A stretch of DNA of 64,000 bases, from positions 32,001 to 96,000 of IMG/VR virus record IMGVR_UViG_3300025010_000004; one strand, written 5' to 3'. The notes beneath the pieces are model-generated. The model did no database searches. It was not told where the DNA came from and saw nothing but the letters and a program-made list of their open reading frames with translations. A program made the translations under genes and the position numbers. Shown in pieces: positions 46,121-57,821 of the stretch; the first letter of the stretch is position 1, and each line of letters begins with the position of its first letter. This stretch comes from a virus.

Positions 46121-46310
46121 GGTAACATGTAAGGTAAGGTAACTTACCGTTAATATATCTGTTAACCTTTGAGGTAACATGCAAGGTAACATGCAAGGTA
46201 ATATATCTGTTAACCTTTGAGGTAACATGCAAGGTAACATGCAAGGTAACATGCAAGGTAACATGCAAGGTAACATGCAAGGTAACATGCAAGGTAACAT
46301 GCAAGGTAAC
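46121..46310. repeat. 12-bp tandem repeat GGTAACATGCAA (~10 copies, with a 48-bp higher-order duplication)
   Basis: 7.5 perfect units at 46221-46310, 2 at 46173-46196, and a variant at 46121. Confidence 0.97.
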
Positions 46311-47084
46311 GCACTAACTAACCTATCCGTTAACCTTTAAGGTGATGATTAAGGTAATAACCCCAAATCCTACCGACCCTCGGTTTCCCCAAACATTATA
46401 TAGAATATCAATAATAACAAAGTTTATGGGGGTTATGAAACACTACCTTCACCCAAAACAACCAAAACATAAATCCAATTCTCCCCATACCGCCTTGCCA
46501 TATGTGATTTCAACTACTTAGCAACTACTCTCAAGGTCATTTTCAAGGCCACATTCCAGCAATTTTAGGTGCCTCTATTGCCACCTGGGAGTTGAAACCC
46601 AACCGTCCGGAATGTGACCTTGAAAGTGACCTTGAAGGTTATCTTTTAAAAACCTTCAAGGTCAAGGTAGAACATGTTCTACCCACCGAAAATCAACTCC
46701 ACCTCCGCTAGCGCACAATTAGCCTTTTATCAGGAACTACGATAACCGGCACGATAAGGCCCCGAGCTATAACCCCGTCCTTGAACAGGTTGAATTCATT
46801 TCTGGTATTGGACATAATGCGGTGGATTTTCTCTTTGCCTCTTAGCAGGTCTTTCATTTGCTTCCCTCCTAGGTTTGTGAGGTAGAACATGTTCTACCTT
46901 TTAGTTGTTGGTTTGTTTCTGAAGTAGAGAGTCGATGCGATGCACACAACGGTACACCACGCTAAGAACAATAGCGTTTCTTCTAGGGATGTGAGATGTG
47001 GCATTTGGTAATCCTCCTTATTTTTTAATTAAAGCCGAAGGCGGCTAAATTAAAAAATTATAATGTTCAAATCAAAAATAAAGC

Positions 47085-47200
47085 TTGACAAAATCGCAAA
47101 AGTGTGGTATAATAGAGGCATATCTTGAGTGAAACGAAAGATATGCGGTTATAGGTTTATAAGCCTTTAGGTATGCCTTACCCTAAACCTTAACCTATCT
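47085..47200 (+). ncRNA. promoter + GA/GAA hairpin cassette, copy C
   Basis: Promoter identical to copy A; GCATATCT-TGAGTGAAACGAA-AGATATGC. Confidence 0.5.
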
Positions 47201-47670
47201 ATATTTTCGTGCCGATTCCTGAATGATTCCGAAGGGTTACACAATACACTAATGATTACGGGTATTTATGTGTAGCCTTTATCAGCTTTATTAACCTTCC
47301 AGGCACCTTCAATGTTACCTTGCAATTTATTCAGGCGTAGCCAAGTAATGTGCAAGGTAATGTTGAAGGTAGAAATCAAGTTACTTTCCTTTCAAAGGTA
47401 GAACATGTTCTACCTTCATAGCTTCTGTTTTAAGGCGCAAAAAAGCCGATCTAACGCAATTATAGGTCAGTACCTGGGCATGGATACCCAAGATATGGCT
47501 ATAGTGGTTAGAATCGGCTTGTGGCTTTTTCATAGTTAATTTCCTTATAGCCCTTGTTTCGGCTATTTAGTGTATGTGGTTTATGCTTCAAATTTGACTT
47601 GTAAGGTAATTTGATTAATCACCTTAGCATGAGCTAGAGTAACTAATCAAGTGACCTTACAGGCATGGTT

Positions 47671-47710
47671 AAGGTGCCTGTAAGGTGCCTGTAAGGTGCC
47701 TGTAAGGTGC
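47671..47710. repeat. 11-bp tandem repeat AAGGTGCCTGT x3.6
   Basis: Read directly from the sequence. Confidence 0.9.
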
Positions 47711-47714
47711 ATAT

Positions 47715-47909
47715 TTAGGTGGTCAGGTCGATGTATTGACCACAGTTAGTCAGGCAAAAGTCAAGGTTAACGTGGTCAGGATTAACACCTGCTTTCAATT
47801 CAAAGACTTCATGTGCATAGAGGCACTGGCACTGCATATGCTCATAGTGCGTACATAGCGTACAAACTTTACGTGTACGCGCATTTTCATCGGCGATAAT
47901 TCTAGCCAT
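47715..47909 (-). CDS. small Cys-rich protein
   Basis: MARIIA... after AAGGAG; CTLCTH..C.C. Confidence 0.55.
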   Translation of the reverse strand: MARIIADENARTRKVCTLCTHYEHMQCQCLYAHEVFELKAGVNPDHVNLDFCLTNCGQYIDLTT

Positions 47910-48056
47910 GGTTAATGCTCCTTTGCTACGTTCTTTTCTACGTAGCACGCTCAAATTTAGCTTCTAAAGGCTTTTCTAAAGGTCACTGGTATAGATACTA
48001 GTAACCTTTAGAAAAGCCTTTAGACTGCCATATCGACAGCCTAAAGGCCCTTGTTG

Positions 48057-48770
48057 TTAGCCGTTAACCGCTTCTGCCTCCGGCTTTTCTTCTGCAGGAA
48101 TAGCGCCTTCTTTAGCTTTCAGCTCCCTCTGCTTTTTCTCTTTTTCGGCCTTTTCAGCGTCAAGATCTGGACGCAACGCGTCTGCTATGGCGGTCAATGC
48201 CGGTTTGATTTCTTCCTTCAGCTCCGGTGACAGAAGCGCCGATTCTTCAAGCACTTTCAATGCAGCAAAGACCTTTGCAAGGTTCTTTTCGTGTTCCGTA
48301 GCGATAGGAGCAAAGGCGGGTTTTTTAGCCTTTACTACTTCGCCGGTAGTTTCATCCTTTACCGGCTCGCCGTCTTTCATTAGCACTTCTTCCGTAAAGT
48401 AAAGGTCGGTTATATTCCGGTCGATGTATTGCTGTAAAGCTTTCAGGCCGGAAGCGCGCTTGTTACCGTGCTTTATTGCTGCGGTAGTCCAGCTGTAAAA
48501 CTTTGCCGGATTGTTGGGGTTAACGGTGCGGTGTTCTTCCGGAAAGGTATCATAGATGCGCTGTACGAAAAGCACTGTGTTTGCTTTTCCCGTCGAATAA
48601 TCGGTAGTCATCGGGAAAATCGGTTTAAACATTTCAAACAATTCCTTGCTTCCCTCGTTAATTGCGTCAATCCCCTTGGAGAGGTTAAGCGCCTTTTCTG
48701 ACGCGATTTTCCCCATTTCAATGAGGTTGACTGCCGCTGAACCTACAAGAATTTCCGCTGTGTTTGCCAT
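48057..48770 (-). CDS. hypothetical protein, first gene of the leftward accessory block
   Basis: Strong RBS; lies downstream of palindrome 48828 and the sigma-54 sites. Confidence 0.7.
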   Translation of the reverse strand: MANTAEILVGSAAVNLIEMGKIASEKALNLSKGIDAINEGSKELFEMFKPIFPMTTDYSTGKANTVLFVQRIYDTFPEEHRTVNPNNPAKFYSWTTAAIKHGNKRASGLKALQQYIDRNITDLYFTEEVLMKDGEPVKDETTGEVVKAKKPAFAPIATEHEKNLAKVFAALKVLEESALLSPELKEEIKPALTAIADALRPDLDAEKAEKEKKQRELKAKEGAIPAEEKPEAEAVNG

Positions 48771-48897
48771 GGTGATAACTCCTTTTCTGTTGTCTGCTTT
48801 TGGCAGGGTATTCGCTTCCCGTTATGAGTAGAACATGTTCTACTTGTGGAAAGCTACGTTGTTTTAATGAGGATGCACTAATCCCTTGGTCTTACGT

Positions 48898-49371
48898 TGG
48901 CATGGTTCTTGCATACCAGGGCCTTCATCTGCAAAGGCAGGAATTAGAACAATCTAATGAGAGAGACCGGGCCTAATGCCTTGCGGCATCACGCTATACA
49001 TCACTCATATTGCAGAAGGAGTGCCAGTCTTGTTATGCCTGGCATTTTATTTTTATTACTTAGCAATATAGCATAGTTACAAGGTTACTATAATGTTGTT
49101 ATGCCTGTTATAACATTGGCTATGGGCCTTACTTGCTTAGATAGTAGGCACTATTTTCTGATAATTGTGTAAGTACGTGTAATTGTTACATAATGTGCTG
49201 CCTAATAAATAGACAGCGTTGATTAAATAATAGGCAATATGCAATGAGCGTGCCAATATGTAATGAGTAGAACATTTGAGACTTATGTTGATTGTATGGC
49301 ATGATATATGCATAGTAGCTATAATTGTAATAGTGGTTGGTATGGTATATGCATTAGCATATAGTGTGCCA
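48898..49371. promoter_or_regulatory. cluster of six sigma-54 (-24/-12) sites in both orientations
   Basis: TGGYA-N8-TGCW with exact GG-N10-GC spacing at 48898(+), 49011(-), 49240(-), 49297(+), 49338(+) and 49356(-). Confidence 0.8.
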
Positions 49372-49874
49372 ACGTATAGTCTACTTAATCTATCGACTAA
49401 GTATATTAGCTTATCTTCATTAATACGGTCAGTCCTCATGCCTGTATTATACACTAGAACAGTGTTATAAAGCCAGCGGAGTATCATTATCCTGGCTTAA
49501 TGAGTATACGTGGGGGCGGTGCGCTCATTAGAGCCGTTTTAATGAGAGCTATTTCCCATCCGTTCCACCTGAATAGTTATTTTAAACGTTACATAATTGT
49601 AACAACCAAACATAACCATAAACATTATTTAAGTCACTTTCAATACCACCTTCAAGACTACCTTAAACATCACCATAAAGGTTACCTTTAAGGTTACCTT
49701 AACATCACCTTAACCCGCACCTACCCAGTATTTTACTTAAGGCACCCCAAAGATTACCTTAAATGTTACTTTCAATATCACCACAAACATTACATTAAAC
49801 ATCACCATAAAAGTAACCTTCAAGATCAATTCCTAAAATTTAAAAATAAATACCAAATACTATATAGCCATATA

Positions 49875-49906
49875 AGAAAAGCCTCTCTATAAAATAGAGA
49901 GGCTTC
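49875..49906 (-). terminator. intrinsic terminator ending leftward transcription from 50-60 kb
   Basis: AAGCCTCTCTAT/ATAGAGAGGCTT stem followed by a T-rich run on the minus strand. Confidence 0.75.
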
Positions 49907-50135
49907 CTTCTTCCATAAAAAATTTGGTCAAACGCTATATAACCCTACCATCCATATAGAGTATCGCGTCTAAAACTACAACACCTCTCCCTCAAGCTTC
50001 TTAATCGACTCGTCAAACCTCATAACGTCATCAATCAAGCAATCTACTATGCCATCCAATTCTCCAACCTCATCGTCAAGCTCTTCAAACATCTGCTCAA
50101 GCTTTTCCAACCTACTCAATATGTTTTTAATATTA

Positions 50136-56934: not shown

Positions 56935-57821
56935 TATAGTAGCTCTCCCACAAACCCTCTACCTTCTCCGCAGTTTTCGTCATCGGCTATGTCGCCTCTA
57001 TAGTTACCTGGATACCAGCTTTTAATATTTTCTGCTAATTCTTCTTTAGTAAACTTATGGTCAAATATTTCTACGTCTGAGTCGTCAACCTTCTTAAGCC
57101 CAGCTTCCCTAAACTTAGCTAGAAGTAGCGGAGTAAACTTCTCAGTCTTATTTTTAATGAACTCCCTCTGCATTGGTATAGCCATACCACAGTTACCACA
57201 AAGCGCGCTAACTTGGTCTTGAAAGTCGTATGGAGTTTTGTCCCACCACCCATCCACAACAGGCCAAGCGTTAGCCCCGCCGTTTAGTATTAAATCCTGG
57301 CTGGCTGCGACTTCGCAGAAGTAACTCCCATGTTCATTGATGGTAGGGCACCAACTTTTCTGTACCCAGCACTGATTTAGGAGTTGGTCCTTTATACGCT
57401 TGTCCTCTACTACCTCCGACAAAGCCACAGTAAGAGGTTGGTGCTTGCACACCTCCTTCTGTGCTGGGTCATGTGGGTTGAATGCTACATACGAAAACGT
57501 TTCATTTATAGTTGGGAGATACTCGTTGTATCTAGGCCCTCCAGAAGTCCACAGGTACACCTTATTTCTAGGAAACTTGCTTCTAATTAAAGCGCACATT
57601 TCTATAAAGTTGCTGTGGAGTACTGGTTCGCCTCCAATTATACCTATAAGGTTAGGCCAGTTCTTAAGGGAGTTTAGAGCTTCTTCTATCTTCTCTAAGC
57701 TCATATCTTTTACCTGGTCTGGCCTTAAATGCCTACTGTATCTGGAGCAGTACAAGCAAGCTCTTCCACATTTTGAGGTAACATCTATCTGGCATACCCA
57801 GGCGTGATAAATAGGATTCAT
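56934..57821 (-). CDS. radical SAM protein with SPASM/twitch-like C-terminus
   Basis: CGRACLYC, IGGEP, later YFCE and LCGNCG. Confidence 0.88.
   Translation of the reverse strand: MNPIYHAWVCQIDVTSKCGRACLYCSRYSRHLRPDQVKDMSLEKIEEALNSLKNWPNLIGIIGGEPVLHSNFIEMCALIRSKFPRNKVYLWTSGGPRYNEYLPTINETFSYVAFNPHDPAQKEVCKHQPLTVALSEVVEDKRIKDQLLNQCWVQKSWCPTINEHGSYFCEVAASQDLILNGGANAWPVVDGWWDKTPYDFQDQVSALCGNCGMAIPMQREFIKNKTEKFTPLLLAKFREAGLKKVDDSDVEIFDHKFTKEELAENIKSWYPGNYRGDIADDENCGEGRGFVGELL

Follow-up and report, generated by a model that had tools for sequence, protein, structure and literature searches.

Six motifs that match the −24/−12 promoter consensus of sigma-54 (RpoN) are packed into 475 bp of gene-free DNA in the genome of an uncultured phage, where they occur in both orientations and far above the density expected by chance. 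Domain searches across the whole phage genome found neither an encoded sigma-54 domain nor a sigma-54 activator domain (PF00158), which extends to the complete phage what the earlier note on this DNA had said of enhancer-binding proteins in the window. The arrangement suggests that the phage uses, or holds, the sigma-54 polymerase of its host in a way little described for phages. Among the readings weighed below, we tentatively favour, at somewhat short of an even chance, the one in which the motifs would be host sigma-54 promoters that borrow the host's enhancer-binding proteins.

Sigma-54 transcription is usually seen as a bacterial route serving nitrogen use, pili, flagella and stress, and virulent phages are thought to depend on sigma-70 or on polymerases of their own. 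A sigma-54 battery in the main control region of a phage, if that is what the cluster is, would either tie infection to host signalling through many activators or hold an essential factor. As the earlier note had stated, RpoN is essential and controls pilin in Geobacter sulfurreducens, where central metabolism, among much else, is also under its control and its dosage matters (PMC2725144), so that either use would matter for how phages control metal-reducing bacteria in aquifers.

The window, the 64,000-nucleotide stretch of DNA analysed in this study, comprises bases 32001-96000 of a 113,294-bp IMG/VR virus record (42% G+C) whose DNA originates from groundwater and sediment metagenomes. Its large terminase most closely resembles the enzymes of T5-like phages (~30% identity), and by this measure the phage is a distantly T5-like one. 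A 127-bp repeat at the ends of the record results from overlap in the assembly. Nearly all genes from position 1 to ~60.3 kb are oriented leftward, and tRNAs were the sole matches in an Rfam search.

The six motifs and their fit to the consensus

The cluster lies in a region of 1,205 bp (48771-49975) that holds no credible ORF. The earlier note had placed the sites in non-coding DNA between a terminator and the first leftward gene; checking the sequence upheld this setting together with all six coordinates and strands, and the GG-N10-GC spacing (GG at −24, GC at −12) is exact in 6/6 sites. The scores below come from a rough sigma-54 weight matrix, whose frequencies are our own approximation of the published consensus.

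48057-48770, − strand: gene of a 237-aa protein, the first leftward gene past the cluster and the sole sizeable gene of the double-depth block described below
48898-48913, + strand: site 1, 16-mer TGGCATGGTTCTTGCA, with its 5′ T TTGGCATGGTTCTTGCA; 19.4 bits, second in the genome; predicted start ~48924, directed right
49011-49026, − strand: site 2, TGGCACTCCTTCTGCA; 15.7 bits; predicted start ~49000, directed left
49240-49255, − strand: site 3, TGGCACGCTCATTGCA, with its 5′ T reading TTGGCACG-N4-TTGCA; 20.7 bits, top of the genome; predicted start ~49229, directed left
49297-49312, + strand: site 4, TGGCATGATATATGCA; 14.5 bits; predicted start ~49323, directed right to the repeat array
49338-49353, + strand: site 5, TGGTATGGTATATGCA, with TGGTAT; the weakest, 14.1 bits
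49356-49371, − strand: site 6, TGGCACACTATATGCT, TTGGCACACTATATGCT; 16.1 bits; predicted start ~49345, directed left
49879-49905, − strand: intrinsic terminator with a perfect 12-bp stem and a T-rich tail, ending the upstream leftward genes

The motif is strongly enriched. TGGCAY-N6-TGCW occurs eight times in the window against 0.28 expected, a count reached in 0/100 shuffles. The looser TGGYAY-N6-TGCW occurs nine times in the whole 113,294-bp genome, and six of those nine fall within the 475 bp, so that the density is by no means similar genome-wide; a similar density was the outcome that the earlier note had said would tell against its proposal. The note had suggested a weight-matrix scan against shuffled sequence; for the motif itself, 20,000 dinucleotide shuffles of 48771-49975 gave a mean of 0.04 sites and a maximum of 2. 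On the approximate matrix, sites 3 and 1 are the two best of the genome, the others score 14-16 bits, and 7 of the top 11 scores of the genome lie in or beside the region. The window's seventh site (47827+) was set aside, being antisense within a small ORF.

The fit to the sigma-54 consensus mrNrYTGGCACG-N4-TTGCW (quoted in PMC2725144) extends to positions by which the sites had not been selected, with Y before TGG in 5/6 and R after TGGCAY in 5/6; T at −15 is present in just 2/6. Site 3 (TTGGCACGCTCATTGCA), described in the earlier note as a full consensus, is indeed the closest match. Measured against the consensus TTGGCACGGTTTTTGCT (PMC2725144), which is that of G. sulfurreducens and is applied here to a phage whose own host is inferred, sites 1-6 agree at 14, 11, 13, 11, 12 and 13 of 17 bases. 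No longer unit is common to the six, which indicates separate copies of a 16-17-bp motif. The exact 26-mer spanning sites 5 and 6 had no match in metagenome contigs, and the site-6 17-mer had 11 matches in IMG/VR, about the chance expectation, of which the sole related one is discussed below.

The layout of the sites is unusual for promoters. Sites 1 and 2 are convergent, and the head-to-head pair of sites 5 and 6 overlaps in an imperfect palindrome of 34 bp (hairpin z −4.6); sites 4-6 have TATATGC in common. Half of the six are directed away from genes. Coding sequence, the 237-aa gene, lies ahead only of the leftward sites at 230-570 nt (~230 nt for site 2), and sites 4 and 5 have none. The GTGCCA of site 2 doubles as the 5′ arm of the terminator hairpin behind site 1. 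No activator site (UAS) was recognised.

The listed strain variants spare the motifs. In variant contigs from a sediment sample, viewed in all but the last 30 bases of the contig, at least 17 changes fall at 49108-49223 and none of those listed at 49224-49249, a stretch that includes part of site 3, while six listed changes at 49287-49341 leave every site unbroken. Site 4 is unchanged among the listed variants, with the adjacent positions 49315 and 49323 altered, and 49341 T>C turns the TGGTAT of site 5 into TGGCAT. Two of the changes, 49337 T>G and 49323 A>G, damage sigma-70-like hexamers that overlie the sites. As supporting evidence only, these changes would favour a −24/−12 reading over sigma-70 hexamers.

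Setting of the cluster, related phages and host

The surroundings of the cluster are described by four further features.

46281-49890, no strand: gene-poor double-depth block of ~3.4-3.7 kb, its left edge uncertain (46.2-46.55 kb)
48924-49058, + strand: predicted non-coding RNA of ~130 nt that would start at site 1 and run antisense to the 237-aa gene's leader
49446-49475, − strand: conserved sigma-70-type leftward promoter, TATAAT at 49446-49451, with a poor −35 (TGGCTT)
49580-49860, no strand: iteron-like array of 12-bp-phased ACCTT/GGTTAC repeats, from repeat analysis

Contig depth in two groundwater samples of one study roughly doubles across the block. In run X1 the block stands at 12.4-17.9 against 6.5-7.1 in the flanks, with contigs breaking at 49875-49904, and in run X3 at 58-63 against 30-32, where one contig spanning the edge averages to a step at ~49894. 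The terminator at 49879-49905 coincides with this right edge (~49890). Given the T5-type terminase, we take the roughly twofold contig depth to mark 46281-49890 as the probable collapsed terminal repeat of linear virion DNA. On this reading the cluster would lie 0.5-1 kb inside the inner end of the repeat, and each genome would carry two copies of it.

Two IMG/VR contigs, G001 (105.7 kb) and G002 (18.5 kb), are syntenic with the phage and encode terminases 74% identical to its own; a third, G004 (50.9 kb), is a more distant relative whose PhoH is 43% identical. Searches of viral and metagenome contigs with the 237-aa protein, its 92%-identical homologue P0001, PhoH alone or a five-member alignment returned no close relatives. 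An 18-mer of the conserved sigma-70 promoter matched four unrelated phages, in which it was just another promoter.

The gene-free zone of G001 and G002 follows the same plan as that of the window, from a terminator through a 12-bp-phased array, built at the same place from another 12-mer (ACTACTTGCCAT), to a leftward TATAAT promoter and then divergent sequence. The syntenic counterparts of the 49446-49475 element read TTGCTA-18-TATAAT in G002 and TTGTAA-18-TATAAT in G001, and the element is likely to be a sigma-70 promoter heading the leftward genes of the repeat, whose transcripts would traverse the whole cluster. It would be too simple to regard the cluster as heading an accessory block devoid of sigma-70 promoters. 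The conserved −10 element and its context lie just upstream in three phages, which contradicts an earlier statement that the block has none. The zone as a whole behaves as the inner end of a terminal repeat.

A single element is kept in the divergent part of G001 and G002, CGGCACRATTMTTGCATAC, flanked by GTTTTAATGAG on its upstream side and ATTAGAAMAATCT on its downstream side. This element lines up with window site 1 in the same direction, and the predicted site-1 promoter and its first 40 nt are retained, whereas the remaining region does not align. The relatives have one to two sites each, compared with six here. A second good site of G002, beside its TATAAT promoter, was left uncounted because it resembles an inverted copy of G002's own 12-mer, as were two further G002 matrix matches that are repeat junctions; a second strong site of G001 (23527−) is antisense inside a gene and hence probably due to chance. 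The repeats of the phages themselves have diverged (AGGTAACATGCA versus ACTACTTGCCAT, and GTAGAACATGTTCTAC versus GGTAGAC-type palindromes), and the GGCAC...TGCW core is the same throughout. This constancy of the core while phage-specific repeats differ fits a conserved host reader, and we consider it the strongest argument for one.

The more distant G004 contributes a single site in its 50.9 kb, identical at 17/17 bases to window site 6, an identity to which we assign a chance probability of ~1e-4 (our estimate, with ~106 kb of related contigs examined). Its predicted start precedes by 35 nt the RBS and ATG of a two-gene operon for small membrane proteins, no usable sigma-70 −10 accompanies it, and by these sequence features its position is that of a normal promoter.

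Downstream of site 1, the predicted RNA includes a hairpin (49018-49048) and a U-run (49045-49058), with a fold z of −2.0, a terminator-like last hairpin and no ORF, from which we infer a terminated transcript of ~130 nt. Folding found no stable structure downstream of the conserved site in G001 or G002. The protein whose leader this RNA would oppose has no sequence match in Pfam, PHROG or PDB and belongs to a family of 13 representatives. Its predicted model is confident (pLDDT 85), with long helices and a small sheet, and gave no convincing fold match in PDB, BFVD or a wide structural search, where only helical hairpins matched (Z<8).

Several further repeat families populate the region, among them 12-mers, a GTAGAACATGTTCTAC palindrome and TAATGAG words. 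The last occur at 48865, 48955, 49261, 49498, 49524(−) and 49540, that is, 6 in 700 bp of the 26 genome-wide. GTTTTAATGAG is present twice in the region and, in G001 and G002, is retained ahead of the conserved site, and CATTAGAGCC is also shared; these words near the sites could represent a regulator site. Each edge of the double-depth block has a 12-bp-phased array (46172-46310 and 49580-49860), the two being in opposite orientation, with AAGGTAAC on the + strand of the left array and the − strand of the right one. A relic of a ACTACTTGCCAT-type repeat, ACTACTTAGCAACTAC, is found at 46484-46530, and a perfect TTGACA-17-TATAAT promoter with a TG extension (47085-47113, +) points rightward within the block, against the genes.

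The host is probably a member of the Geobacteraceae, to judge from the distant relative G004 and from the habitat. The tyrosine integrase of G004 adjoins a 48-nt stretch equal to the 3′ end of a Geobacteraceae tRNA-Pro(GGG) (both within L016 11975-13365), which suggests that this relative of a T5-like phage is an integrative element or has a temperate lifestyle. A 31-mer of the attachment core was found in six genomes among 185,579 species, all of them Geobacteraceae (Geobacter, Trichlorobacter and other members), and five of these six have one RpoN each and 23-35 PF00158 matches. The Geobacter-type host proposed earlier gains plausibility from the confinement of this core to Geobacteraceae tRNA-Pro, with the qualification that the core belongs to the relative and not to the phage itself. 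A search for spacer-type host links, an insensitive one in which two candidates were scored per genome, yielded just 28-33-nt matches at 91-93% identity, which is chance level. Part of a glycosyltransferase gene (57028-57371) shows 69% DNA identity to one Geobacteraceae genome (E 1e-29), a similarity that may reflect gene exchange with the host family, the one family compared.

Promoters or other uses of the motif

If the motifs are host-read sigma-54 promoters, the leftward sites (49356−, 49240− and 49011−) would add a host-state-dependent input to the weak conserved sigma-70 promoter at 49446-49475, and together they would supply transcripts to the 237-aa gene and to the repeat's small genes. 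The conserved site at 48898+ would give rise to the terminated ~130-nt antisense RNA over the leader of the 237-aa gene, and transcription from the sites at 49297+ and 49338+ would run into the repeat array. The proposal of RpoN-driven transcription in the earlier note draws strength from the consensus-like motifs, the conservation of site 1, the well-placed twin of site 6 in G004 and likely hosts that possess both RpoN and activators, and it is weakened by the half of the sites that are directed away from genes.

A simple promoter battery is disfavoured by the overlap of sites 5 and 6, the convergence of sites 1 and 2 and the lack of a close downstream gene for most sites, as well as by the absence of a recognised UAS or a phage activator and by the one or two sites of the relatives. 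Head-to-head site pairs number 2 in the ~450 Mb of 124 Geobacteraceae genomes, which is chance level, so that this is not a host promoter layout. A geometry so rare in host genomes hints at a role beyond plain promoters and would suggest that the enzyme is used in a way not seen at bacterial promoters. Taken together, the geometry, the sites facing the repeats, the missing UAS and the few sites in relatives keep two further explanations alive: recognition of the motif by another protein, and sigma-54 binding that is largely silent.

The first of these, unlikely in our judgement but the most credible of the alternatives, holds that the motif is an operator or repeat of a phage-encoded or other host DNA-binding protein, in an origin- or end-type control region, and that its likeness to sigma-54 sites is coincidental. 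The several additional repeat families of the region would suit such a setting, as the 34-bp palindrome of sites 5 and 6 would suit dimeric binders. The relatives' 12-mer also contains TTGCCA, and, counted by eye, an inverted repeat dimer agrees with the second site of G002 at 14/18 bases, and such a dimer agrees with window site 4 plus its flanks at 17/24. Coincidence of this kind would nevertheless have to produce one specific known consensus at 11-13 positions, with exact spacing and in six copies, which is very unlikely. The motif is moreover asymmetric, its core is the same in four phages with diverged repeats, and site 1 has just 6/17 further bases in common with the relatives' repeat.

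Placed after it, and likewise improbable, is the possibility that sigma-54, alone or as closed holoenzyme, binds the sites mostly without useful transcripts, serving as an anchor, as a roadblock or insulator within the leader of the genes of the repeat, or as a sink diverting RpoN from host promoters. Closed complexes of the sigma-54 holoenzyme are stable, the dosage of RpoN matters in G. sulfurreducens (PMC2725144), and two copies of the repeat would supply 12 sites per genome. Head-to-head and convergent layouts, at chance level in host-family genomes, are pointless for promoters; most sites have no gene following them, the phage has no activator, and the cluster follows a conserved sigma-70-type promoter in a block that each genome would carry in two copies. 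Against silent binding, the one or two sites of the relatives imply that this phage group can do without a large array, and both the G004 twin of site 6 and site 1 with its terminator resemble working promoters.

We find it rather doubtful that the array is chiefly a docking field rather than a set of promoters. On this view, closed complexes of host sigma-54 polymerase would be parked on the inner end of the terminal repeat, DNA that would probably be first into the cell and that each genome would carry twice. As in the DnaA-box stop signal proposed for T5, the incoming DNA would be held or paused, or read-through blocked, until a host activator or a phage protein brings release, and an essential host sigma factor could meanwhile be drained.

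Very little credence attaches to the idea that the sites are standard sigma-70 promoters, with TTGGCA as a fortuitous −35 sequence. A scan does give TTGGCA-18-TATTAT (49256−), ATGGCA-18-TATAAT (49296+) and TTGGTA-17-TATAGT (49337+), but promoter-like sites are no more frequent than in shuffles (15 versus 15.2), a −35 box does not account for the TGC at exactly +6 in 6/6 sites, a usable −10 is missing from sites 1, 2 and 6 and from the G004 twin, and the listed variant changes strike the sigma-70 hexamers and not the −24/−12 bases. Least credible of all is an origin by chance or as a side effect of hairpins and local duplication in non-coding, AT-rich sequence. Although sites 4-6, with their common TATATGC, may be local copies and site 2 is a hairpin arm, shuffles never gave more than two sites, the motif is conserved in relatives and an identical 17-mer recurs in G004.

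Comparison with known systems

A literature search found no description of sigma-54 site clusters in phage genomes, and to our knowledge a compact phage-borne sigma-54 array is not a described system. Its nearest counterparts are the −24/−12 RpoN promoters of bacteria, represented by the G. sulfurreducens set (PMC2725144), with which the phage sites have in common the GG and GC elements 10 bp apart, TGGCAC and TTGCW, and a Y before TGG; the likely host family, in addition, possesses RpoN and many activators. The phage array differs in its concentration of six sites in 475 bp, in both orientations and with one head-to-head overlap, and its sites, known here from sequence alone, have no recognisable UAS and mostly no downstream gene.

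In position, the region resembles the injection stop signal (iss) of phage T5, which occupies 1.66 kb of untranslated DNA at the inner end of that phage's left terminal repeat and is rich in repeats and palindromes, with eight DnaA boxes (bioRxiv 10.1101/866236; NC_005859). The likeness is positional only: in both, gene-free DNA occupies the inner end of a terminal repeat, a probable one here, ahead of leftward early genes, is dense in repeats and palindromes, and has clustered sites, putative ones in the present phage, for a single DNA-binding protein of the host. At the syntenic place, the relative G002 has a pair of adjacent DnaA-box-like words, TTTTCCACA and TATCCACAG (L012 17310-17340), in its gene-free zone. 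Searches of both sequences found no sigma-54-like site in the T5 iss and no DnaA box at 46-50 kb of the phage window, and no homologues of A1, A2 or dmp were found in the phage at E<0.1. The terminal repeat of the present phage, unlike that of T5, is deduced from contig depth alone.

Bacterial small RNAs dependent on sigma-54 include glmY and glmZ. Others are the Qrr RNAs of Vibrio (bioRxiv 10.1101/2021.07.01.450815), which site 1 recalls in being followed by ~130 nt that contain no ORF and end in a terminator-like hairpin, and in the conservation of its promoter region among relatives. The predicted phage RNA differs from Qrr in being antisense to a phage leader rather than a trans-acting regulator of the host, and in the absence of a stable fold in the relatives.

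Non-promoter and intragenic sigma-54 binding sites occur in Escherichia coli and Salmonella, and datA is a DNA decoy locus for DnaA. Both embody the idea, common to some readings of the phage cluster, of a host protein held on DNA without starting transcription; whereas those sites are scattered or chromosomal, the array described here is compact and carried by a phage.
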